A stretch of 63,578 bases of DNA, counting the filler, from Platydemus manokwari (Eukaryota), in NCBI GenBank assembly GCA_037951405.1. It is 6 parts of 6 records of this genome, joined end to end, with 100 filler letters (N's around TTAATTAATTAA, not from the genome) between each part and the next. Parts side by side here need not be neighbours in the genome. Positions count along the whole stretch, not along the records: positions 30,172 to 41,420 come from JBBMOY010817758.1; 5 more parts are not named here. One strand, written 5' to 3'. A program made the translations under genes and the position numbers. Positions within the stretch are counted from its first letter, which is position 1, and each line of letters starts with the position of its first letter. This document shows positions 3,346-53,331 of this stretch, in pieces. The notes below the pieces were generated by a model. It had not been told where the DNA came from. It searched no databases and saw only the letters and a program-made list of their open reading frames with translations.

Positions 3346-6300
3346 TTAATGTCTGATATTTTATTTATTTCATATTTTATCGAATCCTTTTTGTCATCCA
3401 TTTCATATTTTATCTCATTATTCTCCACCCAATTCTTATTCTTATCCATGATCAATACACAAACCTTTTCTTCTGGGCCTTCACCAGATAAAGCTATTTA
3501 AAATCAATATAATTATTAAAAATAACCTTGAGATTCGAAATTAGCTTTTGGCCGTGATTCAGTGTTAGAGCTGAAAACAGCCATAGACATTGTACCTGTT
3601 TCAGATTTTGTCAATTGTTTCTGAGGAAGAGGTAAGGAAATTGTGATTGGTTTTAAAATATTCCTATTTTGAGATTCTATATGAAGAAATATAATATAAT
3701 AATGGTCGGTGAATTTAGAGAAATGAGAATAATTTCTTAATCCATCACATATACTACTTTGTTTATTTTATTAATGAATGGTTTTTAAAATGAGGAATAC
3801 CGAAAGAGTCACAGAATTCGAACTCGACTTTTCTCAATTTCACGTGATTGTTAAAACTGTCGAAATTAAATTCTAGTTTCATTCACATTAACTTTCATAA
3901 GAAACTTTATACAATTTTCAATTTTTGAATAAACTGGCAATTATCAGATGTTTGTGAATAATAACAATTTAACGATCATTTCATAGCCTTTCTAAATTCT
4001 ATTTATAAAGCAGTTTAAATTTTTTATTTAAACCCTAAAATTTACAGGAAAAGTGAGTTTTCATTTAATTAAATCTTATTTTTAAAGGAATAATGTAAAA
4101 TGAAGACGCCATGAAGATACCCTGAACACACTTTAGTAGTAAAGAAAATATGAAAAATTAATCAGAAAACCTTTTCACTGTGGTATTTTTAAAATGTTTT
4201 TCAAAATATTTTCAGAATATTTTTTACACAAAAATTTGTGTGTCCAATAAAGGAACAGGTTGCCAGGTTACCAAGTATTTTTGGTAAAAAAAATTTCAAT
4301 GCGTGTTTTATAAAATAGTAGCAACAGAATTCTGTTCTGAAAAGATCAATGACTGTAAATTACGGAAAAGAAGGAGGAAGATGTTGAGATAAAGAAGGAA
4401 TATATATAGAAGATTTAGATATATAAAGAAAATGTATAGAAAATGCAAAAAGATATATAGCGAATATCTAGAGAAGATATGAAGAAGAGAAATATTTTTA
4501 AGTAGATAAACGTGTAGAATATTCGATACAATGATTAAGACTACAAAGTAAATCAAACATTTTAAAGAAAGGGAGTTGTGAGAATGTTAAATTATTGAAT
4601 TAAAAAGTTGAAAACCACTGCATTAGGTCAATGATATTTTTTATTAAAATAGTCAATAAATCTACCTATTTTCAAGACATGAGTAAATGCATAAATATTA
4701 TCTGCATTGGTTCCTTTCGATTTGACTTTCATGTCTTGAGCCCAGCTTGAGTCAAATGCTAAAGTCTAGAAACAAATAAAAGTAAGAATAAAATATCATT
4801 TAAACTGTGAAATGTTTAGTGAAGAAGTTTAATAAAGCTCAGAAATATAAATGTGAAATATTAGATAATTCACAGAAAATCAATTGATAAATTATGTTCT
4901 CACGGTCAATAATTCACAGGCATCGAATTTTTCACGAAAATTTATTTTTGACCTTGATAAAATGAGCTTTTGTATTTTTAAAATTTAAACTGACGACGTA
5001 TTTAGAATAGAAAAATGTTTTTGGTTTTAGTTTTCAAAAATGGTTTCAGAAATATTCTGAGACTAGGAAAAGTTTGAATTTCTTTGAAGGTTTAGAAAAA
5101 AACTAATTAGAAGGAATTCTTTAAAAGTAAAGATAACCTAAGCTCAATAGCTCAGATAAAAACATATATTCGCGATGTGTTTTCATTGGAAAGAATAATA
5201 ATTTTATATATTGAATTTCGTAATAACAAACTACTTATAAAATAAATAATAAATAAATATTTGTTATACCATTTCAATGATCTTTGTTCAAATTTCAACT
5301 GTGATTGTATTTTGGTTCTATATATGCACATCCATCATAATTCTTACAAGCTTGGGGATAAAATATTTTACAACAACAGAAATCTAATTAATCAAATAAT
5401 ATTTCCAGATTATTATCCCTATTCGAATATAATAAGTATTATTTTAGAATATTGTGTCAATTGTACTTTATTTCTAATTATATTTATAATTATATAATAA
5501 TTACTTTATTTTTTATTTTTTTTTAATTTATTTTGCTTTCATATCTTTATTAGAGTCAGATTAATTATCAAAATATATATTAAATTCTATTTAATTTTCA
5601 AGCTATTCTGATCTATTTTATATCAAAACATTTGAGAAAAGACTCTAGCAAATATATGTGGATTAATATGACCAATTAATATAACCAATGAAAAAGAATG
5701 TTATGTCAACCTATTGAATGGCATATATTTTTCAATTCTTGTTGTCATCAAAGCTTAATTAAATAGTTTTCGAATGTATGCCGTATTTTTACAAACTCTT
5801 TTTTACAAACTCTTATAAGCTATCCGTATCAGTATTTTACAACTAACAAAATAAAATCACCTATGCCTTAGGTGACACCCATTCATTTTCACTCACATTA
5901 AATTAAATTCTTCATCTTACATAAATAAAAACCAGAAGATTATTTCCATCGACTGTAAAATTTCTTTTGATAAGCTTAATTCTTAACTCCTTTTACATCA
6001 ATATTTCTATTTCTATTCATACCAGCTTACTAATCCTTTTCGATACACATGATAAAATGAGTGAAAATTGTGAAGTAATTTCAGAACAATATGATTCATA
6101 TAATGATTATAGTGAATATTATGAGTACCGTCGAGGAATTTTGAAAAAACCTTCGAACAAAAAGAAGACCAATATAAAGAAACATGGCAAATGTGTCGAG
6201 TTCTTAGATAAATTCTGTTTAATTAGATAATTTACCCTCCTCATCAAATTAGGAAATCCTAAAACGCTGGAATAAATGAAAAGTCACATTTTGTAAAGCA

Positions 6301-10314: not shown

Positions 10315-12696
10315 CACTAGATATTTAACACCAGCTATTTAATATACCTATTTCTAACAAACCTGTCAAAATGACTGGTGCATAAGAAAAAAGGCTTATT
10401 TTGGTTTCCAGTCTATATTTACTCTTAAAAATGACAAAAATAAAGTTGAACAATATTAATTATAACAGATAAATGGATTTATAGACATTGCCAATTGACA
10501 AAACACTTAATTGTTTACAGTTTGTTGCTCACAATTTCTACACTTTCCGCATAGACTATTTTTGCATTTATTGCAAATATTTGTAGTTTTATTGTTATTG
10601 CAATATCCTATTTGGCACCATTTTCGTACAGGAACTGTGGCATTTGTGGTTGGTATATTGACTTTGGTTTATTGGTTTTTGCATTGAAGTCTGATATTCT
10701 GAAGTAAGTTCTTCTGCTAATCGAAACAGAAAGTCTTTTCGTGAGATATTTTCTCCTGTTGTGTTTTTGTATAATATCTATTTATTGCGTCTAAATCTAA
10801 AATATTGAAAAATACTTGAAGTGGTCACCTTCTGGAACCTGATTTCACCGTATATTTTCGTGCCATTTGATCAGTAACATCGATGCCAAATTTAGTATTA
10901 TTTTAAAACGATACAGTTTCAAGTAATTTCTTTGCAGCTTTATCAATTTTGATGTGTTTATGTTTTGTACTTAGTATAAGCACTTTTTTATTTGGTTTGC
11001 CCTTATGAATAGTAAGTGTACATCCATTGGATTGGTCCAACAACGTTGAGAAACGTACCATGTTGTCTTTTTTAGTTTGCAATTTTGTGGCAGATCCCTC
11101 TTGTTTGCGCTTATTGTTCCAAGCAACGCAGTATTTTTAGATTTTAATTCTAACGCTAAAGGAATACTTGTAAAAAGATTATCAGTTGTTACAGTTCTAC
11201 CCTTCATGGTATATGGTTTAAGAAGTTTCATCACGACAAATTCTCTTGGAGGGGTTGATGCATTTCGTGTCTCGTCTTTTCCTAAATACGGAAAGCCATT
11301 TACCACATATTTCGTCTCTACATCGGACGCCAACCAAAATTTTATGCCAAATTTTTGGAGTTAGTTTGGCATATACTGAGTAAATCTGCATCTAGCCTTT
11401 GATGGAAAAAGATGCTCATCCACGGTAATATAAGCTCCTGGTTTGAAGCAATTTTTACTGTTTTCAATAAATTTATCCAAACTGCTGAGACTAAAGCGAA
11501 CTTGTCTGTCTACAAACGTTAACTCCTCTGATTTTTTTGTCGAAAAGAATGTATCGCAGAATCTCAGTAAAATCACGTCTACTCATAATGTTGGAGAAAT
11601 ATGATGGTCCCCACTTGTTATTCCACAAATATTGAAGCCTCAAATTATTTCCTTTGTACGCTCCACGTGCAAATAATATTGCTAGAAATGCCTTCAATTT
11701 TTCTTGCACAATTATCCAGTTTTTCCTCAAAACTCGAGAGGCTTCTAACTCAGTACAAATTCGAATATGTTCCAAAATATGGTTGTCAATCAGTAATAGA
11801 AACGCACTACTTAGATTCCCGTTCATAATGTTTCTTTTAACATGTGCTGTTGGCCCGTGTACATCTTTGAAAGCACTATAAAGTGGTGATCTACCAGCAA
11901 TACCACCTTTTTCAATTCTCGTCCAAATAGTTTCGTCTGAAGCAATTTCAGTTTGTTGATTTGGTATATTACTTCCACATTCATCTTCAGAACTTGAAGG
12001 GAATCGCATACATTCTCTTGTGCGTTTGTTTAGAATATTTTTGCAATCACTGTCACTCGACTGATCTATATGGTCTTCATCAGGAATTTCATCATCACCA
12101 CTTTCGATAATAGTCCTATTACTATCACCATCATTAGCACATAATTCACTTTCTACATCTGAACATTCCAGAGGTATGTTGGCTGCATTTCCAAATATGT
12201 AGAAAGTTTTGCTTTTTTTGACATTTTTAGGGACTCAGAATCACTATAAAAATTTTGTCTATAAGAAAAATGTTGCAAGTTGAACAAAGTTAGAAACAAG
12301 ACTGAACGTGTCTAGTGCATTTACAAAACAAATGCTCATCAAAATGACGTCATTAACACAATGACGATAGTGAAAGAAAACAAAAGTCGATAACGAAACA
12401 AACAAAAGACGCTTCGGTGCTATATGTACTGTATCGGTCTCATGATTCTCCCAAAATCATACATTTTTTCATACAAACACAACCTGTCATTTTGACTGGT
12501 ATTGGTATAAATGTCAATAACAAAAATTATATTTGTTACTAATGTATATAAAATAACATTAAGTTTATAAAACGTATTCTCTAATTATAGCTACAAAAGT
12601 CATAACATCATTTCTGAAAAAAAATGCGTAATGTAGTAGGAATTTTGAATTGAAATTGCACTATCAGTCTAAATGACTGGTCTGGTAAATCTAGTG
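10315..12696 (-). mobile_element. piggyBac DNA transposon, full length, decayed
   Basis: TTAA target duplications at 10311-10314 and 12697-12700. Termini CACTAGAT…/…ATCTAGTG. Subterminal CCWGTCA-nnn-TGACTGG-like motifs at ~10362, ~12483 and ~12665. Confidence 0.92.
10507..12224 (-). pseudogene. piggyBac (PGBD4-like) transposase with frameshifts and stops
   Basis: Fragments show 'MSRRDFTEILRYILFD', catalytic 'TVDEHL', 'TTDNLFTS' and 'GIDVTDQMA', then a C-terminal Cys-rich 'RKWCQIGYC…ICNKC…LCGKC'. In-frame stop at 11361-11363 and frameshifts near 11510 and 11040. Confidence 0.9.
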
Positions 12697-34177: not shown

Positions 34178-35579
34178 TTAAAATATTTACGCGTCGCTTT
34201 GTTACAAATGAATCTTAATGAAATGATACACTTAAACAAAAAGATATATGTTATGCATTTTCACTATTTTTAAATGATTTTGAAATGTTTTCTGAACAAG
34301 CGTAATGACAAAATGAAAACCTGCACATTAAAAAAAATTCAACTAGTACTATTTTGAAAGATAAAGATTAGAACTGATTTCTTTGAGGTATACAATGTTT
34401 AGATTTCCTAGGAGTTCGTGTTGCATGTAATTTTAAATAGTCATAAATACAAAAATATAGAATTAATAAATCTTAAACCACCAATTAAAAAAATTTCAGT
34501 ATATTTGAGAAAACACTTGTATTCATCTGAACAAATTTTAATTACTGCAAAAATATATTTAATTGAACAAATGTATTTTAGATAAAAATATAGATGATAA
34601 CAATATTATGTACATATTTGGTTTCGATAATAAAAAATCAAAATTTTTCGGAAGTTAATTTTGTGGAATTTATAAACAACTTCAGATTCTTCATGTTTAT
34701 AGAGTTAATCCCAACAATCTTGGTCAATTAGTTTTACTCTTCTTGGGGCATTATAACCAGTGCCTTTTCCAGAACTGTAGTAGAAAAGCTTGTCGTTTAT
34801 GTGTGTATACAAGTAGTGATTTATAAACTTATTGTTATAATTGTATAGCCGTAGTAATTTATATTAATAAACGTGTATTTATCAAGGAATATAGTTTTGA
34901 TATTAAATCGGAAAATGCCATTAAGTTCCACAATCATTTCTGTTAATATTATCATCATCAAAATCACCTCATTATCTTTTTTGCAAGGTATAGTTGAGGC
35001 AGTTAAAGGTTAAAATTAATATAAAATCATTATAACAATATCTAGAGTAGCTCATCCCGAATTTGTATGTGTATTGGTGTTGATCGAGGCGAAGGAACAT
35101 CAAGATATTAGGTTTAATGACTGTCTGTGGGTCATAAGGAATCAGAGAACTTATTAGACTCAGATATTTTCAAAAGCGAGTAAAAGTTCAAAATTTGAAA
35201 TTAAAATAAAAGAAATCAGAGACTTCGAAAATCATCATGAGATACAGTTATGACAGGATATGTGAGGTATCAAAGTGCAAAACTGGAAAGAAATTTTCAT
35301 ATTAATCTTCCAGATGAGACCAATAAAATTTGATAATAAATCGATGATATTCACGGAGAAAAATAATGAAGGTAACTGAAAATTATAGACTTTATTGATT
35401 TTCATAGAAATGAAAATTTTCGTAATGAATGAAATGTTTTTATTGTTATTATTATTATAAACATAAGGGAAAATGGTACAGTGTTGTTCAAATTGAAAAA
35501 TTTTGCCTGATTTTGAATAATTCAATAATATTACAATAATTTTGTTAAAAAGCACACCGCTAGATCTTTCAAAATGGAC

Positions 35580-38500
35580 ATCTTCTTCCTAAAACTTAGT
35601 GGTCATCACGGGACTACTGTAGCCAGTCAAAACCACAAATGGATTGTATACTGAAAACTTGAACAATGACAATATCATGAATCTAAGCACAACCAGAATT
35701 AACATTGGATGCAACGTCTCAACTAAGAGACTCACTAAACCGAATCTCAACCAGTTCTCTCTTCTCATTAATTACCTTGATTCATTAGCCTGTAGATTGG
35801 AACAATGCAAGCACTGTCCAAACAGCAAACACAACTCCTTCTCACCTAACGAAATCATATGAACAACTGCAAAATGCACAAAATTGCAAACCTATTATTG
35901 GAAGTATGCCAAGCCAAGTAAGCTCCTATGCCTCCTCGAGTGCAAATGTAATAGCTACTCCAACAATTACATCTCCAGATTCTCTGATTTATAGCTATTC
36001 CAAGAAAAACCGAAAAAATCATGTCTAGCAATTAATAGTGACTCAACAAATACAGCTTTCGAAGTACTGCAAAACATCCAACGCTGTTGCAGTACGTGTG
36101 TTAACTCATTCAAAACAATGATATCCAAATGCAAAACCAAAAGAGAGCAACAGACAGACTGCAAGCTAAAATTCGATCAAATTATCCCAGAGAGCGAAAA
36201 ACTAATCGTATGTTCCTGCAATAAGTGCTACAAAAAAGCTCCACAAATAATTAAACAGTTTGAAATAAATTAAAGAAAATGTTATACACTCTGCAAGAGA
36301 TACTCCACAAACAACAGAGCCTAAACCTGTCACAAATAAAAGTCAACCCCTCGTAAACAAGGTGCAACAAATAGCCTTTGATTATCCAAGGATATCCCTT
36401 ATTGAGAACAAAGAACAGCAAACTAAAGAAGCTCATCATAATTCAACATTTTATCAAAACAATACAGCCTATCCAAATCAATCTCAAAACAACCATCAAA
36501 TTGCAAATCATCAAGCTGACATAGATATTGATGATGTTCTCCTAACTTAAACCACAAAATTCTCCAATATTTCACCATACACTTTCAGATTCTGATGAAG
36601 AAAGTACTCCAGAGAAGACCACTCAACAACAAAATACTAACCGAACTAGCTACAACGTGCAGGTGAACTACATACCGCTTTCACAATTTCTATCTAAGCT
36701 GTATAGTGGATCCCCAACAACATCAGCTTTCATGTCGCTAATCAATATACGGAAAGCACAATGTAACTTGTGCCCGAATATCTTCAAGTTCCCGTTCGCC
36801 AACACCACTATTGTACCAAAGCAATCTAAAAATCACATAACATCAACCTTCTATCAGAATAGGCTGTGAATGCTTGTGTGGGTTCATTGGAGTGGTAACA
36901 CCATCTAGATTGCATCTTGACAAACACAAAGCCGAAAATCCGTAATCAAACTAATTTCATGAGCTCAACAATCTTCCTGTTATCAGCGAAGGCATAAAAT
37001 CGCAATGACTATAAAATCTCACCATTGAAGTCTACTTCTCAAATAAAATGACAGAGATCAAAACTCATATATTCATTAAACCACAACTGGCTAACGCAAA
37101 CATGAACCAAGACTTCGAAACTTTCTATCTATCCTTTCAACGTTCAAAATCTCCTTTTGGTTATCATAATCACTGGAACCTATATATCACTAATCAAACT
37201 AAATCATGCTCATTCTTTATTTATCCTTCAACCCAATATTTATCAGATTGCCAGAAATCACTGTGAAATAAACTGGACTCACTACTGCAAAACCTTCAAG
37301 TAGTTAAAGCATTTATCACGTATAAACAATCATCACTTACCTGTCTTCCAAAGCAATTTGAAACTTCCTTCCATTTTCAGTACCAAAATTGTTGCTTACA
37401 TTGGAGGTAATCATAGAACACTATTCATTTGCAATCCCACTTTCATTATCTCAACTTCTCACCTACGCTACCGCGTATCGAAGACAAATCAAACCTCAAA
37501 CAGACCAGATTAACCGAAATTGACAAAACGTTCCAGAACTGGCATGGTGTACAAAGACTGGAGCCAGATTGATCTACAACATCTGTTCCTCTCATCATTA
37601 TTTACAGGATCCTTAAAACGAAAATAATATCTAAATGAAGTAAGGAAAACAATCAACTTCCCATATCACTACATAATGGAGAACAAATGCCTTGACTCAT
37701 ACAGGATAATCACCACAAATGAATTGACTCGGGGCAATCTAATATATTAAAACCAAAAGGCAATGTTTGCCTCGGACAATAAAGACCTCCATATATGCTA
37801 GATCAATTTCAAAGAAGCATTCCAAGCCTAGCACATGAGATCATCTGGTATGCCCTGGACAAAATTAGCTGCAATATGCATTACATCAAAATGATAAAAT
37901 TCCTCTATAAATACACCAAATCAACTTATTCTTGTGGTCGGATGAAAACATCACCAATACCAACACATCGTGATGTCAAACAAGGATGTCCTCTGTCAAT
38001 GATATTATCCTGCCTTTTAATTAATTACCAAATCAAATCATCAACAACACGGCCGAAGCCTCCGACAATGTATGATAATCAATATTCGACATTAGACTAC
38101 GCTGATGATATAATCATTCTGCCAACTTCAGTGAGAACTTAGAACCTAGGTTGAACCATCTTATTCATCTTGCTAACAATATCTATCTACACATCAATGT
38201 CGACAAATGCGGATACTTCACCAGAAACATCTTAAACAGAATTGATCTTACAATCTCCAATGAATCTGTGCCAATTGTGGACAAAATCATTCTGTAAAAA
38301 TATCTAAGCGTCCCACTTGGTCTTTCAAAACATACACCAGTCAATGATATTCTTCAATCAATTATTGCTGACTTTTGAAGCAATAGTAGAATCTAAGCTA
38401 CATTCATAACAGAAATTCCAAGTCTACAATATATTTATACATTAAAGGCTGCCATTTCACTTCAGAACACAAAAAGTTGAAACAAAGGCCCTAGACTCCC

Positions 38501-39360
38501 GCACTCTCATCACAAACTGAGATGAATAACATGTCCAATCATTTGATAAGAAAATCCGTGCCATGTGTCCTAAAATTTTAAAGCTTGGCGGTTTGAAATT
38601 GAGCAACAACTTCTTTCTACACGCTTCAACAAAAATGGATGAAATTGGCCTAGCCACTTCTTTAGTGGAATACTGTATCCAAAGCATTGTCTGCGATTTC
38701 AGATTCATGGCAACTCCTGGACCAGGAATTCAGAACTTTCATCTAACTGACTTAATCAAATAGAAGCTACTGGATGTTTCAGAGTTAAATACGACATTGT
38801 ACTGGATCCCTGATAAAATCACATCCAATAAAAAAGCACAAAAGCAATGTCACAGAAATTCAATTGAAGGTGACTGTCAAAACGGCCAGGACTTATTTCT
38901 TCTTAAATGACAACAGCAGGAAACTGTGTGACATCCTGCACGACTCGGCATCAATGACTCTCTTCAACGAATAGTCAACCATGAAAAAGCAAGGCAGAGT
39001 GGTGCACTGCTTTTTGGCCTCATAATTATCACAGAAACCTTTAAAAAATTTCAATTTATTGACAAAAGCTGAACTTCAATCATACTTTATTAAATTGAAC
39101 AAATCAACTTTGTACCGAACAGGAAACTGACGCATATATCTTCATTCATTATCTAGCTGTGCCAGGCTAAGCTTCGAAAAGACAAGTAATTCTTCTGAAC
39201 CACCTTGGACATTACTTCAGTAATTCAAGAGATGAGCAACGATTTTCGCCAATATTTGGAGTCAACATCAGAGGCCAAACTCGCAAGAAAGTTTCAAAAT
39301 TTTACTCGTCACCTCCAGAGTATAGCTGAAGCTAATGGAGACTATGTCTAGGCTCTGTTA
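35580..39360 (+). mobile_element. Decayed RLE-type non-LTR retrotransposon (NeSL/R2-like), copy 1
   Basis: Zn-finger 'AQCNLCPNIF…' (~36760), Ulp1-like 'HNHWNLYI' (~37165), RT motifs 'INFKEAF/SLAHEIIW', 'DVKQGCPLS', 'YADDII' (37790-38120), then a 'CTEQET…IFI' / 'LNHLG' region (~39110-39210). Many stops and frameshifts; ends approximate. Confidence 0.85.
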
Positions 39361-39579
39361 TTATTTACTAAAACTTTTAGCTTAATTGCACATTCGATTT
39401 TCACAAATAAATGTTTTAAAATGTATTTTTTTGTAGATTTTTATAAGATTTCAATTATGTAGAAAAACGAAATTTTTTTCCGGCCCCTTTTTAAAGAAAT
39501 TAATTTTATGAAAACCATAGACTGATGTGAGGACTTGTATCACCACGTCCTGCAGATTTTGATGTGTATGCAAAATAAA

Positions 39580-40400
39580 TTTTAGTTTTCTGACATTAGA
39601 TCTAATTGCATGAACATTTTGGAATAGAACATCTAGGGTTTTCCAAAGGTGATTTTTGGACTTTGAAAAAAGATTCGGATTTTAGAATATCAATTATTTA
39701 AAGATTCCGATGTTGGTTATTCCAGTGAATAGGCCAGCACATAGCTTTGCACGGGATGGGATGCAGGAAAGGAAAGAAATGGTAATATGATTTGTTATCG
39801 TGTTTATTGACCGCTATAACAGGTTGAGGCTTAATAAAATTTTGTTCCCTGGAATTCACAAGTTTCCAGGATTGACATTAATTGGGAACTCAGATCTTTC
39901 GGTGAGAGAGGGATGCGGGACATTTTTATTGTTGAAGAAATGGTAGCAATAGATTTACCACACACGGTAAACTTATCGGAATGGACATAGATCATAATCA
40001 TGTGGGTTGCAATGCTAATTGAACCTCGATGAAGTTCTGTTGGTTGATAAATTGGCATGGATTGGTTATAGTGATGCAAAGTATTGGCAGGAAATTGGTT
40101 ATTATAGAAGACATGTATTTTACGTTGGATTCAGGGTAATTATCAGAGAGAATAGGTGTGCAAGGTTCTTCGATCGGTGCTAGGATTATGTCATCGGAAA
40201 CAATACAAGATTATTTCAGGCACATAAGTAATCAAATTTTGTCGTCTCGAGATGTACAGAGAGAGTTGGGGATTTGAAATGACATGGAGGTTTTAATTAT
40301 GTTTGGGTTAAGTGCTTTGCTATTGTCAGTACGAGGAAAGTACAAGAATTTGCTCGTTATTATTTGCGTGATATAGGTTAAAGGTTCTATTATAAAATTA
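39580..40400 (-). mobile_element. 5' fragment of the same retrotransposon family (copy 3) with the clearest Ulp1-like motif
   Basis: Minus strand 'FIKPQ…WPIHWNNQH(R)NL*IIDILKSESF…LWKTLDVLFQNV' aligns with copy 1 'FIKPQ…HNHWNLYITNQTKSCSF…L*NKLDSLLQNL'. 40130-40200 resembles 35665-35785. Confidence 0.7.
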
Positions 40401-42935
40401 GGATGAAAATATTACGTCGTTAGAATTTTTAGACCTCTGTTGATTATATTTGTTTGTGAATTTTTATCTTTTTAGGGGGTAGTCGACTCAGTATTTAGTT
40501 GGAGTTTATGTTAAAATTGCGTAACGTAAAATAATATTAAAAAATGTTGTCAGTAATAATTATGTAATAAAATAATTAAAGTTAAGAAGATTTAACAATA
40601 AAAATAATTAAATCAGGATATTTTTGGTAGAGAATCTCAACTGTTCGCTTTAAATATGACAGTCATATCCCTGTCGATTCTAATCAGAATGCTCTGGGTT
40701 GCGATAGGAAACTATCGATGCTGTGATAATGAAGAATGTGTCTTGAGGAGGCAACCTAGAAGGAGAAATATCTTAATTTTGATTAACAACAATAGGCTGA
40801 TTAGATGTACCGGGGTAAGGTTCCTAAACTCGTTGTTTATTCGGTCGATAACATAGGGCCTATCGTCTGAAGTGAAAAGGTGACGATCAAGAAAGTTATT
40901 ATTTGAGTCTCACAGTGATCGGAGTGGCGTCCGTCAGTTACGAGTTGCTTGATGGTTCGTTGGGAATCTTATGATGAGATTATGCGGTCTTGGTCGAACG
41001 TGAAAGCGTCACTATTGATAGTTCTTCTTATTATTGAATTTGTGCGGGTAGCTTTAACCGTCTGGGGATATATTGAAATAATAATAATGATTAAACGATT
41101 ATGATTTTAGATGTATAGCTCTTCGATCTGCGAAGCAATGAGTGTCGGAAGTTGTGTATAACAAATAAGCTATGCGAACGATTGCAATTGAAACAGCTTA
41201 TAAATATAATTATTATAAATATGATTATTAGTAATTTCCACCTTTTATTGAATTTATTTGGATCGTATAATCGTCAATTGCTTAAAATGTACATGAACTA
41301 GAACACAGTCATGCATTACTGTCGTTCATATATACAACAAATGTTATTAGGGTGATCGATATGAAATGCACAAGTGACTTCTAAAAATGTAAATAAGTGT
41401 AACTTTTTTCTTTGTTAATANNNNNNNNNNNNNNNNNNNNNNNNNNNNNNNNNNNNNNNNNNNNTTAATTAATTAANNNNNNNNNNNNNNNNNNNNNNNN
41501 NNNNNNNNNNNNNNNNNNNNTCTACACTCTTCGATTACGAGATTACCCAAACTTAAATAAAATTTCATAAATATAGATTTTAAAATATTTTTATTCTAAA
41601 ATCGTTTAAAATATATAAATTTGCTTCATACTCAATTATCTTCAAAGGTAATTTATTACGTCATATTTACAATTATCTCTTTAATTGTATAGTCAATATT
41701 TAGTAATTTAGCTTCATCAGATCAATTTTTGTGAGTGATATTTCTTCCACAAATTACCATTTTATGCTGATGATGTGTATTTATATTCTCTTAGCAAATA
41801 CTAAATTATATTTAATTATCAGTTTTTCAAAATAAATTATTTTATTTTCTTCCAGCAAATTTTATTCATAGTGATTTTCAAGATTATTCAGCATTTTTAA
41901 AGTATAAAGAATTATTTTTACGGTCTCTTATTTCGAGATCGTTTCAAGCTTGTAACCTATTTTTCATTTGCTTGAATAGTATACTATAAAAATAAGTTTA
42001 AAAAATTTATATATTAATTCCCAAATATTATTTATTATTAATTCTAGTTTTTCATCTGGGATAGACAATATAAAATTTCGCAATATGAAATTACACCAAA
42101 AAGCTCAATTTTAAATTTTAAATTCAATTACGATACATATTCATTTCCAAGATTTAAAAATGTATAATTAATATTAAATCCAAAAAATGTCATAACACGT
42201 GTCAATATAAAGAATAATGCTTTTATACATTTATAATAAATAGGTCACTTAACAGTATTAGGTATCAAAAGTATCGCATTCAATAATCTCTTAGTTATTT
42301 GCTTAATTCTAAGTTGATTACTGGATTCGGATTGATCAAGGCCTAGGTTAAATCGTTACATCGTATAATATTATTTTACTTTTTTGGGAATTTTTCGATA
42401 TTTTTGACAACTTTTTATGTATTGTTCTGCATTCATACACAGTTGCTCTAGTCGGCGAACACTGTCGACTCCATTCCTTGAACAGCATCATAAAATTTGA
42501 TTTCGAAGAAACTTCTGTTGAATTATTATTCTCATATTTATAGTATTAAGGAAATATGATAACACATACGTCTCATTTATCTTTCATTATTTATACTTTT
42601 TATTCTATTGTTGATAATAAATTTGAATTTTTTGAAAAATAACGATTTCTATCTTTACTTTCAGTGATTTTAAAGTAATTGATTCGGTATAACTTAAAAT
42701 GTTTAAGAAATTACTATGACATATTTTTAATATAATATATAATTATATTTATTCAATAATTTTTATATAAGATTAATACTCTAGAATTTATTTTTTAATT
42801 TCTTATGAAAAGTTATTGTTTTAATATTTAATAATTTTTAATTAAAAGCTGGTTTTTTAAATATATTAATTTTTATTTATTCGTATTTTAGCTATTAAAT
42901 ATATTTTGTAGTTTTATGATATTTTTTAGATCTAA

Positions 42936-44426
42936 ATGTATATCGATGAATATATCACATCAGAAACAGAAACATTCCACGAAATACTCAGAAGCGGTGT
43001 TACTATATTTTTGATATTTATTATTCTTTTAATAATAGCACATATTGTTGTGAATAAGTTGAAAGTCAAGCAATCTGATGATAGGTTCTTTGTTAGTAAA
43101 AGTGATCATTGTGCATATCAAGTAGCATTATTGACATGTACGTTTTCTCTTGCTATTACACTAGCAGCAACAGCTTTGCTACCGTTGTCTATAATAAGCA
43201 ATGAAATAATGATACATTATCCTAATTCGTATTATATGCAATGGATAAATACTTCTTTAGTTCAAAATTTATGGAATACAGTTTCATTGAGTTCTAATAT
43301 CACAATTTTCATTTTAATGCCATTCGCTACTCTTTTTTTGGATTCAGAGGGGTTTTCTGGATTAAAAAATAATATTCACAATCGTGTTATGGAAGCAATT
43401 TGTTTTTTTTCTTTCACATTATTTATGATATTAGGAGCTGTTTGGATTGTTTGTATTCCATTTCGAGAAAATCACAATCTATCATCATCTTTAAGAGATT
43501 TGTGGCAATTTTATTTGCCTTTAGTTTATTCAAGTGTTTCACTTATTGGTGTTGTTATTCTCTGTGTGTTATCTCCACTGGGATGTCTCAATTTTATTAT
43601 TACATTTTCAAAATTATTACAAAATCTTACCAGTCGTTCAAGTAAAACTCCAGATGGTATGCTTCAAATGTCAATGGAATTGAGCACTCTTGACAGAAAA
43701 TTAAGAAATATGGACTATCTTCATTGTTACGGAAATATCAACAAGAAGCAGATATTTAATATGAAACAACAACTACAATCTCAGACATGCAAAAAATATT
43801 ATTTTTTCAAACTTATATCCTTATTGTTGGTTATAGTTTTTACAACTACAATTGTGTTGTTGCTGATTTTCTATGTTGTTTTTAACACTGTTGGCATTGT
43901 TATTGGTCTTCAAGCATTACCGAAATCTCGAGCAGAAATTCAACTCGGTCAATATCCGTCATCTCGACTCGGTTGGTTTGGAGCAGCTGTTCAGATTCTC
44001 CTCATTCAATACTTACTGTTTAGTAGTGTTTGGGCATTGTATCAAGTCTTTCCAATGGTGAATTATATTCCCAAATGTCAGTCAACTGATATACAAGCAT
44101 TATTAAAAAACAGCATGTGTATATTGCTTGTGTGTTCAGCAATACCTATTCAGAGTCGTCTACTCGGTGTGACAACATTCAACCCACTTGGCACATTCGG
44201 TCATTTTGATTGGCTGGACTCGAGTGTGCTTGTTCTCATGTATAATATTGGTTTTCTAACCTTGTTATGCATCTGCACATTTAAGAAAATCGTTCAGAAC
44301 ACCACTCACAAAGTCGTTCTCGTCGATTCTATGAGACAAGTGATGACGTACCTGGATTCATCACCGAAAGTCGTCAAGATTTTGTCAAATAATCTCCTTT
44401 CAAAAAATGAGCTTAAACGAGCTTAA
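42936..44426 (+). CDS. LMBR1: LMBR1/LMBR1L (LIMR family) multi-pass membrane protein, single coding exon
   Basis: 496-aa ORF with 'CTFSLAITLAATALLPLSIISNEIM…YPNSYYMQWINTSLVQNLWN…FILMPFATLFLDSEGFSG', plus C-terminal 'SAIPIQSRLLGVTTFNPLGTFGHFDWL'. These match LMBR1-family signatures. Confidence 0.9.
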   Translation: MYIDEYITSETETFHEILRSGVTIFLIFIILLIIAHIVVNKLKVKQSDDRFFVSKSDHCAYQVALLTCTFSLAITLAATALLPLSIISNEIMIHYPNSYYMQWINTSLVQNLWNTVSLSSNITIFILMPFATLFLDSEGFSGLKNNIHNRVMEAICFFSFTLFMILGAVWIVCIPFRENHNLSSSLRDLWQFYLPLVYSSVSLIGVVILCVLSPLGCLNFIITFSKLLQNLTSRSSKTPDGMLQMSMELSTLDRKLRNMDYLHCYGNINKKQIFNMKQQLQSQTCKKYYFFKLISLLLVIVFTTTIVLLLIFYVVFNTVGIVIGLQALPKSRAEIQLGQYPSSRLGWFGAAVQILLIQYLLFSSVWALYQVFPMVNYIPKCQSTDIQALLKNSMCILLVCSAIPIQSRLLGVTTFNPLGTFGHFDWLDSSVLVLMYNIGFLTLLCICTFKKIVQNTTHKVVLVDSMRQVMTYLDSSPKVVKILSNNLLSKNELKRA

Positions 44427-44890: not shown

Positions 44891-46021
44891 TCAATCAAAT
44901 CTGACATGTTTTTCTTGGCCAATTGCGTCGTTCTGTGTGGCAGGTGATGTATTGTTTATTTCGAAATTGTCATCGTTTCGCCAAAAATCGAATGATTGAT
45001 TTTTAATGATTGGTTGCATCAATTCTGTTGGCGATTCGTCTTCGAATTCCAGTTTCCAATCGCTCTCTGATGAGTCCGAATCTTTTTCATGTTGGTTTTC
45101 GTTTTTTTTCTTATTGTTTCCCCACATCAATGGACTTTTTAGAACTTGAACATGTTTTAATTTGTCCAATGGTTGGTTGTTGGCATGGTTATTCGAACTA
45201 TATTTACACTCATTATGATTATTGAGAAATTCATATTTTGGATGGGTAAAATGAATACAGTCTGTAATTGATTCTGTTGAATCGGATAAATTGTCAGATT
45301 TGATGTTATTATTATTATTATTATTGAAACAGCAATTGCAATGGTGACAAGTTTGATCACAATTATTCTTAGCCAACTCATCATGATGCATAAGGTTGCT
45401 CATTTTATTTAAATAATCGTATATACTTTGATCATTTGTTGATGGATTTCTTTCAGTGTTGTTCTTGTTGTATAAATTAATGCGAGGGATAAAAACTCTC
45501 GGTAAATAAGTTAATGAATTATTTTGATAAAATTTCAATCTTTCATCATCTTCTTTTTTATGTAACTTTAAGTTTCTTTCGATATACCTTTGAACGGATT
45601 GCTTTTGTCTTTGAGGAACTCCAAACCTTGGTGTTTGTGTCGCATTGGATACTAAATTATGCGTTGGATTTCTCTCCATTGTCAACGAAGTTGTTTTGTA
45701 ATAAGAGGCTGGAGATAGATTAAAAGGAATGTCTTCAGTTTTCTTTCTAGAATTTTTTGTTCTTTTAATTTGATTCTGTTCTACATTTAGCTTGGGTAAG
45801 AATTTTCGCATTGTATTATCTTTTTTAATTGTAAATGTATCGTTTAGAGAATGGCATCTCGTCGAGAATTTTTTCTGGAATTTCATACTCTGTTCATGAA
45901 AAGAATTATCTCTTTCTGGTAGTATTGGGTAATATATTTTTGAATTATATATAGGATGTCTATGAAAATTTCTTTTTCGAACACATTCACCACCAAGACA
46001 TTTTTTAGATTGAGAAGTCAT
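44891..46021 (-). CDS. 376-aa orphan, Asn/Ser-rich, likely disordered; ends in KHVRFD
   Basis: A 1.1-kb stop-free frame in very AT-rich DNA is unlikely by chance. No recognisable domain. Confidence 0.7.
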   Translation of the reverse strand: MTSQSKKCLGGECVRKRNFHRHPIYNSKIYYPILPERDNSFHEQSMKFQKKFSTRCHSLNDTFTIKKDNTMRKFLPKLNVEQNQIKRTKNSRKKTEDIPFNLSPASYYKTTSLTMERNPTHNLVSNATQTPRFGVPQRQKQSVQRYIERNLKLHKKEDDERLKFYQNNSLTYLPRVFIPRINLYNKNNTERNPSTNDQSIYDYLNKMSNLMHHDELAKNNCDQTCHHCNCCFNNNNNNNIKSDNLSDSTESITDCIHFTHPKYEFLNNHNECKYSSNNHANNQPLDKLKHVQVLKSPLMWGNNKKKNENQHEKDSDSSESDWKLEFEDESPTELMQPIIKNQSFDFWRNDDNFEINNTSPATQNDAIGQEKHVRFD

Positions 46022-49399: not shown

Positions 49400-52300
49400 A
49401 ACAAATGAGATGATTTCAAAATGTCAATCCATAAATGGAATTCGATAGCTCGCTAATTTGTGAACATCAACAACAGATAACAAACATCAAGACACACCAA
49501 TGGTATGAGAGATAGAAATAATATGTTGATGGTTCTAACAAATAAAAAAAATGAAACTAGAAAAAAACCAAGAGATAAATGTAATTTGCTTCTTGTCAAG
49601 TTCGATATTCGATAGGACCTTGAAATTGTGAGGGTCCAAAGACCCAACTACACTGATGCAGTACAGACCTTGAAAATTGTTGTATTTTTCTCGTGATTGA
49701 AGATAGCCACTCTTGACGAAAGGAATCTTGAGGTCAACGATGTGGAATTGACGTTTGTTTCTGTTTTGGTACCGGTCCAAGTTTGTTCAGATTCCGGTGG
49801 AGTTGTATCGATGCCCCTGTCGAAGCCTAGTGATTGCATATAATTTCCTAAATGATTTAGGATTATCGCGTGGCGTTTTGAAGCTAGCCTCGAAATCGCC
49901 GAGCATTGGATAAAAATATGATTATTAGTTTCTTGTTCTGAGTTGCAGCTCCGGTATAGTGTTGATTTATTTAATTTGATAAAGTACGAGGTGTAATTGA
50001 GTAGTAGGAGGTTGTTATGCAAATAAAGGATGAATATTCAAACTTCCGGTGACAAGTGGAATTTCTTTAATGGTTTATGGGACAGATCAGAAGTGGCGAA
50101 ACTGTTGACCAACATTTCATTTTTTCATTGTGTACAAATGGTTGAAGAAGACACTGAATTGTGTAGGATATCTAAAACTTTGCCTCTGCTTTCTTCTGAG
50201 AAAAAGTATATCTGGTTCGATAAGATAATAATTTCTAGTTGGATTTGATCATTGTGATGATAGAATTTACGGTAAATTTAAAGGTTCCTGAGTTTCCTGG
50301 TAGCAAATCTCGTTTTGATTCACCAGGCTGTGGGAGTTCATTTTTAGTCCGATGCAATTATGTCTGATATCCAGGTATCGGTGGCTTGGTTGAGTCTGTA
50401 TTCGATGAGGTTGTTAAGTGTTTTATGATGAATTACCTGAATTGATAGTCCGGATTTGTTATAAATGTGAAGGCTTAAACAATGCAGTACTTCATGTGTG
50501 GGGTAGTCAGAACGATTCTCCCGAACTTGCGTGGAGAGTAGAGGAAGTAATTGTTGATAGATTTCAAGCCTTGCAGATTTAGTATTTTACGAGAGATTGG
50601 TCAGATCTTTTTGTAGAAAGATTAAGCCAGTTTGTCGTCTACATTCGTAATCAGAGTGCGAGAGTCGAGTTTAGTAGTTTCGACCTGTTGAATTCTGAAG
50701 TGGAACAAGAATTTTGAGTTCAGGAAGGTGCTGTATACTTGAAAATTTTGAGAAGGTGCAGTCTAGACTTCAAAATCTGATATTATCGTTTGAAGTGGTG
50801 CTCGCTGTGGACAGCCGAACAGAAATCGAAAGTACTTGTAGAGATTTGTGCTGTCAATAACCGGGACCGTTTCATCGAAAATTGCGAGATCAATAGAGCC
50901 CATTGGATTTTTGAAATAGTAATGATGCTTTGACACTTTTAAGACAAGGTAAATGTCAGTGATATTGTGGATGAGGTGAATGAGTCTCTGTTCAAGATTT
51001 TCTCCAAATTTTGCTATGATGACAATATTATCTGAGTGTGAAAGAGTGAAAATTGTCTTTGATGGATTATTAATGAATCTGGTAGTTGCGCAGAAGACTT
51101 GATGAGGAAGTTGATTGACAAGCAGAATAATGATAATGATAGTAGGCATCCTTGCTGGACATCACAGCGAATGGAAATTGATGGAGTTTTTAGATGATCA
51201 CAAGAGTAAGTAGATTTTAAGTTCTTTTGTAAGGTTTTTATTATTTAAACGTAGTGAAAGTTGCATCCCATATGGTATACTTGGGAATACTTCCTTAAAA
51301 CTGATCTAGCCGAGGTGGAAGTATTGGTGTTGTTGAATTGTATATTTGGATATTGTGATTAAGTAGGCATTGTGTTAGGCACATCCGTCAGAGGCGAACG
51401 AATAGATAGAAGGTTGCCAGATTCTATCCAGTTCAAGATTAGTAAATTCAGGACAGTTGCAAAAATTCGATATAATGTGTTCATTAAACCTATTGGGTAT
51501 CATGATAATATAATATGTGAGGTTTACTATTTGCTTGGTTTAAGGAGGGGTTGGTGTTGCTTTCTTCCTATTCTTTCAGTATGGTCTTTGTTCGTAGGAT
51601 TGTTGAAGAAAGGTAGCAGAATATCACGTTCTTCTTCCAGTCTTTATAAATGATGCCGTCTGAGCCTGTTGTAGATTTTGACAATTTTTGGAAGATGTTT
51701 GCAATTCCTGCAATTGTAATTTCTTTGAGGTTTTCGTGCCGAGGTAGAGTAGAAGAGAATTCGTATTATAGTTGTAGAGGAGCTGGAATTGTATAGTGTG
51801 CTATGATCTGTTCCAATATTGGCACAAATCTTGGCGTTGAGAAGGGAAGAATATTTCTAATTGTCTTTTTGGGCTCACTGAGAAATTTACTACGAAGTTT
51901 GAAATCTTAAGATGTTTGGCTATTGAAATGTAATACTGTAGGTTTGACATGTTTTTTTGTTGCAAATATAAGGGGTTTGTCCACGGACAAGTGTGTTCTA
52001 TAAATATATAGTATTTGTGTGAGGTCTGGAGAATCAATTTCCAGCAGCTTGATTGCTTCCAGCAGTAAAGGGCGTCTCATTTGCCCTGTAGCTGGTTCGA
52101 TGACATTTGATGTTTTTCTGATAATTAACTGGTTGGTTTATCAGTTTTTAGTCTTGTGCTGGTACAGATGCAGCATATGACATCGTGGTTTTGCAGAAGT
52201 GTTTTCGGACAATTGATGTGTTGGAAAATGGAAAGTGATAGATTTTTGGACATAAGTTGCACTGGGCATTACGATCAATGATTAGAGACATAAATGGCGA

Positions 52301-52470
52301 CATTGCTGGAGAACCGCCATATAGTTTCGATACCAATTAGTTGAAAGGAATGTGATCTGTTTGGATAGTGTAGGTTGATCTGTTTGATTGAAATTTATAG
52401 TTATATTCTTCTTCACTGCAGGCAGTATCATTTGTAGTTTGAGTGAGAGTCACATTATCGATGCAGATAT
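49400..52470 (-). mobile_element. Decayed RLE-type non-LTR retrotransposon (NeSL/R2-like), copy 2
   Basis: 'SKLYGGSPAMSPFMSLI…AQCNLCPKIYHFPFSNT' matches copy 1 (36700-36810). RT 'STYSCDHLKT…DVQQGCLLS'; CCHC-like 'SCNSEQETNNHIFIQC…RHAII'; endonuclease-like 'HIVDLKIPF…REKY…VVGSL'. Confidence 0.85.
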
Positions 52471-53331
52471 GGTGCAGAGGCAACTTGGTACGAAAAAAGC
52501 GTACGATTGCGAGCTTTTTTAAGTTGGTTGGTGGGTTGAGAAGACAATATTAAAACATATTATTCTTTTCCCAACACTTTAATGTTTATAGTTTTATATT
52601 CTTCAAAGACACTTAAAGTATTAAAACTAAAAATAAAAAGAGATGTTAATAATAAATAAGAAAGACAGAATAAAAATTATAATAAGGAAAAAGTAGTAAT
52701 ATAAATAAAATTGAGAAATTTTGCGTAGTAGATTAATTTATAATCTTTTATTGGTGAAAAATCTTATAAAAATAAATAAAATAAATGAGGAAATAAGAAA
52801 GTAATTTCCTGAATTGTTTAGGTGAATATTTTGTGACTGACAATTAATTTACTAACTTTAAATTATATAATACAATTTAATTTATGATTAACTTAAATGG
52901 CTTGGACCCAGTCTAACTATTCTTGGAATGAATACTTAAAATCCAGCTTCGAAAAATCATTAAAACTAATAAGCTCAACCACCAGTAATCTATTTAACAG
53001 GCAGGGCTGTTATTTCACAAGCATAAAAGACTTAATTTCGAATATTACAACATTAGATTACCATTTATAAAAATAACTTCATTAATTTTACCTGGTTATT
53101 TATTCTTATTTAATTTAATTTAATTTTACTGGTATTCTGAGATATCTTAAATCAAATCCTTAATAACATAATCAAATCATATATTCCGCACCAAAACAGT
53201 GATTCTATTTTTCGCATTGTTGCTAAGACAACGACCTAATTTTCTTTTGTTATGAAATTTAATTAAAATGAAAGTTATGCATTTCAATAATTTCATTTAA
53301 AAGGACTGTTAAAATGAGAGACTTATTTTAT

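Follow-up and report, generated by a model that had tools for sequence, protein, structure and literature searches.

Decayed retrotransposons of Platydemus manokwari from a protease-bearing lineage whose intact members likely read through one in-frame UGA

Described elements and the copies in the window

The pairing of a Ulp1-like protease with a reverse transcriptase (RT) is already known from NeSL, a clade within the R2 group of retrotransposons that lack long terminal repeats (non-LTR), and the available text of Kojima and Jurka (2015; PMC4640811) reports such a protease only for nematode NeSL and for Utopia-1_TSP, which belongs to the NeSL clade. The same text treats R5 and LIN of planarians as NeSL-clade elements of the restriction-like endonuclease (RLE) type with varied targets, and its S5 Fig, as available, lists no R5/LIN protease. 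Elements of the R2 group have one open reading frame (ORF) according to the accessible part of PMC3636483. Here we describe a 63,578-nucleotide stretch of Platydemus manokwari DNA (GenBank assembly GCA_037951405.1; parts of six records joined by filler), called the window below, which holds the dead, rearranged remains of two diverged RLE families (copies 1 and 2) and a third protease fragment (copy 3). The elements very likely belong to an RLE retrotransposon lineage with a protease of Ulp1/SENP fold before the RT, and intact members of this lineage likely read through one in-frame UGA.

A Ulp1-like protease upstream of the RT is common to nematode NeSL, Utopia-1_TSP and the clade described here; in contrast to those elements, the protease here is characteristic of a clade with at least 24 diverse proteins, of which some have additional dead repeats of it, and neither a spliced-leader nor a U2 target was seen. 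A core group within the clade also differs from nematode NeSL in having a stop at the protease Trp. As in the NeSL clade of the R2 group, a C-terminal CCHC motif and an RLE follow the RT, here in copy 2. Unlike the single ORF of the R2 group, the intact relative L001 has an in-frame TGA and core-group proteins start after it, whereas the proteins P0176, P0013 and P0177 each consist of one long frame. Flanks of the R5/LIN kind (28S or tRNA) were not seen here. Utopia, which targets U2 small nuclear RNA (snRNA), is of RLE type too, and Utopia-like rows were among the best-scoring named relatives, yet the RT clade here is separate from Utopia-like animal and oomycete rows in quick trees. A UGA between two retrotransposon frames also occurs in Tca2 of Candida albicans; in the available text of PMC2194720, however, Tca2 is an LTR element with its stop at the gag-pol boundary, not inside a protease motif. 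Intact relatives share fold and catalytic set with Ulp1, NEDP1/DEN1 and SENP (clan CE, family C48), although identity in the best fold matches is 16-20%.

Copy 1 is a decayed non-LTR retrotransposon of RLE type on the plus strand at about 36550-39226. The three copies comprise the following features:

36546-37005, plus strand: remnant of the upstream frame of copy 1, in which CNLC... (frame +3) and CECLC...HLDKH (frame +1) resemble zinc fingers
37006-37008, plus strand: in-frame TGA, then CTA, at the position of the protease N-terminal Trp (W-L-x-D-x-x-I), with the same spacing as in L001
37009-37349, plus strand: N-terminal half of the C48-type protease of copy 1; His-Trp kept, Tyr at the Asp site, Gln-Cys part missing
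37350-39226, plus strand: pre-RT linker, RT, thumb and linker, and decayed CCHC region of copy 1; YADD at 38098; truncated before the endonuclease
39665-39870, minus strand: copy 3, a fragment of about 200 bases with the protease N-terminal half only (FIKPQP...FPF...WPIHWNNQH)
49580-52482, minus strand: copy 2, a separate family with zinc-finger part, linker, RT, CCHC remnant and RLE (IVDLKIPF...EKY...VVGSLDP)

The original prediction took these for three copies of one reconstructable family, which the DNA does not bear out. Copies 1 and 2 are identical at 13 of 63 fourfold sites and are thus not one family, which rules out building a consensus; neither of them has a DNA match in copy 3. Similarity between DNA blocks of copies 1 and 2 is 58-67%, with 59, 68 and 37% identity at codon positions 1, 2 and 3 (523 columns). 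Their silent sites are saturated, and they therefore represent families whose divergence took place during activity. Within its threaded part, copy 1 contains 14 stops and 9 frameshifts, and its RT matches Pfam RVT_1 (E 4.6e-6); copy 2 has 19 stops and 7 frameshifts, and its alignment extends through the endonuclease. The upstream parts of the two copies share 48% amino-acid identity over 81 residues. The zinc-finger label of the copy 1 remnant was assigned by eye, as Pfam gave no match there; its CECLC...HLDKH motif shares frame +1 with the protease. Related copies occur in run X1 (26 records aligned on 571 bases, 20 of them less than 90% alike). This run may itself be the source of the window, so these contigs count as sister copies rather than independent support, and their depth does not equal copy number. 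The 5' end of copy 1 is approximate, with related contigs aligning from about 35640. Upstream of copy 1, at 35790-36300 (plus strand), lies a Cys-rich decayed frame, possibly the element's 5' part, which has no match to Pfam or to the relatives.

Protease remnants and their intact relatives

Using a protease profile built from the domains of 16 relatives, we searched 426 six-frame pieces of the window and found two matches below E 0.01, in copy 1 (6e-6) and copy 3 (2e-4). The 97 residues of copy 1 aligned to an alignment of eight relatives over 94 columns with a probability of 94.9%, and on the strength of this alignment and the profile match the protease remnant of copy 1 is real. A frameshift-tolerant alignment scored the three copies at 429, 484 and 80, against 26-28 in three shuffles. 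In copy 1 it covers the protease from helix one through the helix that follows the Asp site, and the next 125 or so codons, which would hold the Gln and the catalytic Cys, are missing. Pfam C48 matched no window piece tried. On long read-through frames, Pfam detected neither an RT nor a C48 domain, and a word-index search that used just the protease fragment gave 0 matches among 11 candidates.

The His motif of copy 1 proved to be as predicted: HNHWNLYITNQTKSCSFFIYPS lies at 37165-37230 in frame +1, with the Tyr 17 residues after the His, where relatives have Asp. Among the sister matches listed, no alternative letter was found for the first base of the Tyr codon; one contig spans the site. 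A short deletion precedes the His, and two sister contigs run on with PFQ-like letters behind 37138. The predicted motif of copy 3 was likewise found in one minus frame near 39750-39690, as WPIHWNNQHRNL followed by a stop and IID; the His-Trp motif reads HW in copy 1 and HR in copy 3, the latter from a decayed Trp codon. Other readings did not survive. The 'LPKQ...QNCC' letters were given as following the Tyr of copy 1, but QNCC comes from the pre-RT linker read in the wrong frame, because the coding frame from about 37350 is +3 (SKAI-stop-NFLPFSVP...IIEHY). This frame is indicated by the match to copy 2 (67% DNA identity over 139 nt), by two sister contigs that begin fitting at 37350 and 37354, and by three sister contigs with an A at 37359, which abolishes the frame +3 stop. 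As for LPKQ, these letters may mark the end of the protease at the junction, or they may be read there by chance. The Asp-Cys-Gly motif is absent from one contig's loose end behind 37356, possibly a misplaced short match. In copy 2, 'CWKLIL...YIFIE' does not match the protease profile and is not the His motif; the protease remnant of this copy amounts to the first helix at most, with weak resemblance in other frames at the CWKLIL site. A His-Asp-Gln-Cys set is not visible in the window: none of the three copies has the Asp, the oxyanion Gln or the catalytic Cys, with Tyr at the Asp site of copy 1 and its Gln-Cys part deleted.

Intact relatives were found by phmmer with one read-through frame (frame +1) of copy 1 as the query, and the matches listed all fall in its RT and thumb part. 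The best six relatives all pass the Pfam Peptidase_C48 cut-off upstream of RVT_1; among the best 20, nine pass it and 12 match at E <=0.011. Pfam serves here as the independent check, since our profile was derived from 16 of the same clade proteins. The profile matches 24 of 32 database proteins in the protease-RT clade compared with 1 of 53 outside it, and six of the eight clade proteins without a match start at or near the RT. His, Asp/Asn and Gln...Asp-Cys-Gly occur in one domain in 17 of the 24 protease-bearing clade proteins (one with Asn for Asp), and most full-length clade proteins have CCHC and endonuclease motifs. The predicted ancestral layout (zinc fingers, Ulp1-like protease, RT, CCHC, RLE) thus stands whole in intact relatives; its assignment to a single ORF does not, as L001 has an in-frame stop at the protease start. 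Modelled with Trp at the stop, the L001 domain has a predicted local distance difference test score (pLDDT) of 88.5 and resembles NEDP1, Ulp1 and SENP5 to about the same degree (E 4e-7 to 2e-6); the intact domain thus has a Ulp1 fold in the model, and specificity for SUMO, NEDD8 or ubiquitin is indistinguishable from the fold matches. While the window copies are dead and add little alone, the lineage widens Ulp1-bearing long interspersed nuclear elements (LINEs) well beyond the nematode elements in the available text of PMC4640811, and the intact proteins offer material for asking what transposon-borne SUMO-type proteases do.

Some relatives depart from this pattern. Seven proteins (P0003, P0005, P0019, P0159, P0023, P0160 and P0050) have one catalytically complete protease domain followed by 1-2 degenerate copies before the RT, and in P0008 a Ser replaces the catalytic Cys. 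P0107 has a C48 domain though it lies outside the protease clade; P0236, P0244, P0251, P0258 and P0286, from another clade, are very long RT proteins with a ubiquitin C-terminal hydrolase (PF00443). Locus L003 matches in the RT at 34%; its N-terminus is of another kind and lacks a protease. No relatives were found in the viral contigs searched.

For RT placement, 89 of 192 RT-region rows were used (the 75 best-scoring, 12 named or outgroup rows and the two copies), after removal of six near-duplicates; a second tree of 60 rows used a mixture model, and both trees were quick and made without bootstrap. In the 89-row tree, copies 1 and 2 are sisters adjoining P0157 within a 14-row core group, with a Shimodaira-Hasegawa-like approximate likelihood-ratio test (SH-aLRT) value of 98, inside a clade of 35 rows (SH-aLRT 100). 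The 60-row tree recovers the core group at 97 and the clade, with 32 rows, at 99. As predicted, therefore, the RT groups with protease-bearing elements and not with a protease-free clade. Utopia-like rows (turtle, bee, ant, nematode and oomycetes), so called from the host list in the available text of PMC4640811 and an RNase H domain, fall outside the protease clade in both trees. By architecture the clade, which is unnamed, is related to NeSL, and it may be R5/LIN, as the tree holds no NeSL-1, R5 or LIN rows; no R5 row was found in the available part of one supplement of PMC5678591.

An in-frame UGA at the putative tunnel tryptophan

L001 is the sole intact close locus with DNA across the protease start from a metagenome search. 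Its frame 3 is open over 253 codons that include two zinc-finger-like motifs; after one TGA it is open again for 1152 codons, which encode protease, RT, CCHC and endonuclease, with 17 TGG and 0 TGA. The TGA is the sole stop in 1406 codons, and the flanking frames are exactly in phase. It occupies the Trp/Phe place of W-L-x-D-x-x-I in single-frame relatives, with residues on both sides fitting the motif, and lies 64 codons upstream of the catalytic His, compared with 60-65 for the Trp/Phe in all seven relatives with the site inside the ORF. In Ulp1, W448 is part of the Gly-Gly tunnel and is spaced 66 from H514 (available text of PMC9603560); motif and spacing suggest that the L001 stop site is the W448 position. 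The stop context of L001 is TGA-CTAG, and UGA CUAG is cited as read-through-prone in the accessible part of bioRxiv 10.1101/2021.04.18.440353. In copy 1, the TGA-CTA at 37006 is in frame with the last zinc-finger motif and is followed by I-E at 6 codons and F-I at 22 codons, the same as in L001. The called starts of all nine core-group proteins with a protease part lie past the Trp site, by 5-6 codons in two cases, and several core-group contigs exceed the gene by 2-4 kb. R5 of planarians has two ORFs, an arrangement that would agree with a stop separating the zinc-finger and RT frames. Copy 2 has G-N-TGA at 52036-52034 and copy 3 a possible G-N-x-TGA at 39858-39856, both weak.

We propose that the UGA would halt most ribosomes, with release of a zinc-finger protein, while a minority would insert tryptophan, the putative Gly-Gly tunnel residue of the protease. 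Such read-through would yield a full-length protease-RT-endonuclease fusion that would insert by target-primed reverse transcription. The protease might then remove SUMO/NEDD8-type tags from putative element or host substrates, or trim the fusion; removal of SUMO or ubiquitin-like tags in transposition has been suggested for the Ulp1 domains of DNA transposons (available text of PMC2836005). The read-through step is evenly balanced between true and false. Slightly less assured still is the broader proposal that a whole sub-lineage uses programmed UGA read-through on the tunnel tryptophan, which in one decoding event would both switch on the protease and determine how much zinc-finger protein is made relative to the RT fusion. 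If the UGA is read through, a LINE would have gag-pol-like control, with a single-codon test. No case of programmed UGA read-through on a protease tunnel tryptophan in non-LTR retrotransposons was found in the literature searched, nor were the breadth of the clade and the stop on this tryptophan; either the protease or the stop may have been described before in Repbase entries for R5/LIN.

Several observations weigh against read-through in a protease-bearing lineage. One intact locus has DNA across the site, and 1 of 80 loci matches the protease profile. The protein starts are gene-caller choices, the place of the gene within the contig not being fixed, and in P0176, the sister of the core group, a single open frame runs through the site with Phe there. 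In copy 1 the TGA is followed by a TAA two codons on, and the DNA alignment of copy 2 with copy 1 at the TGA site is not above shuffles (58/500). Conserved Trp codons have decayed to TGA in none of seven columns in copy 1 and in three of nine in copy 2, for which reason the copy 2 TGA is weak. RNA structure after the stop is not beyond shuffles (z 0.05 to -1.45, 5/5 folds). The copies were threaded on the core-group profile before tree building, a possible pull towards the core group, and Asp is not established as ancestral at the Tyr site in the copy 1 family.

Four other explanations were weighed. Were the second frame to arise by re-initiation or from a non-AUG start near the stop, as in other two-ORF LINEs, the protease would lack its N-terminal Trp or be a separate product. 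One sister contig fits this and also counts against read-through: it has both stops, is one base shorter, and has an ATG overlapping the TGA that is then in the protease frame (in a 30-letter loose end). L001 has a GTG five codons past the stop, and P0003, P0004, P0005 and P0019 start 33-70 residues before the Trp, so that the two-frame layout may be general. However, the first ATG after the L001 stop is 5 codons behind the catalytic His, and plain AUG re-initiation would therefore lose a conserved active-site residue; with the exact phase and the motif fit on both sides of the stop, this makes a new start unlikely. A single-ORF element in which the TGAs are independent decay of TGG, leaving the window with an ordinary dead NeSL-like family, is a distinctly poorer prospect: it draws on the frequent Trp-to-TGA decay of copy 2 and on the single long frames of P0176, P0013 and P0177, but L001 is open at every other codon and the core-group starts all lie after the site.

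A-to-I editing can turn UGA into UGG, and recoding of the UGA in RNA would give exactly the conserved Trp; yet no stable double-stranded structure above shuffles surrounds the stop, and we consider editing very improbable. That the protease-like letters arose by chance, or from a neighbouring host or DNA-transposon Ulp1 gene, would be in line with the Pfam C48 null in the window and with the Ulp1 domains carried by Ginger1 and Mutator transposons (available text of PMC2836005). This is almost certainly wrong, being largely refuted by the profile, frameshift-tolerant and relatives' alignment matches, and the intact proteins matched by the fragment are those matched by the RT, with order and strand in common.

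Target sites and neighbouring features

No shared target was seen for the copies, and the site specificity raised in the original prediction was not recovered. The window contains no Rfam match at E <=1, from which an undescribed leader RNA would escape, and no tRNA or U2 fragment. Copy 2 is the sole copy with a 3' end, and its flank is unremarkable; the end of copy 1 is lost. In the window the two families flank an ordinary gene, which does not suggest strict targeting. An Rfam scan of the 3' flanks of 19 of the 80 loci placed just one element, the distant L011, beside rRNA. In L011, positions 1-1624 are eukaryotic large-subunit ribosomal RNA upstream of the distant RT match, probably an R2-type insertion.

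Two further features adjoin or separate the elements:

39228-39660 (approximate boundaries), no strand: high-copy repeat unrelated to the elements, truncating copies 1 and 3
42936-44426, plus strand: LMBR1-like membrane protein ORF, uninterrupted, 496 codons (Pfam E 5e-37), between both element blocks

The repeat reaches a summed contig depth of up to about 5800, compared with 10-150 in its flanks, with loose ends at 39214-39233 and no clear terminal inverted repeats. A second high-copy repeat in run X1 lies at 35000-35200. The window is AT-rich eukaryotic DNA with a GC content of 0.22-0.37 in 2-kb bins, its LMBR1-like ORF suggests a host of animal type, and the elements sit in two GC-richer blocks at about 35500-41000 and 49500-52500. 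Converging on the LMBR1-like gene is an open frame of 376 codons at 44891-46021 (minus strand), without firm Pfam match. A decayed piggyBac-type transposase lies at 10971-12234 (minus strand), with PF13843 in two frames, and 2705-2865 and 6043-6203 form a direct duplication of 161 bases with 96% identity inside short open frames.

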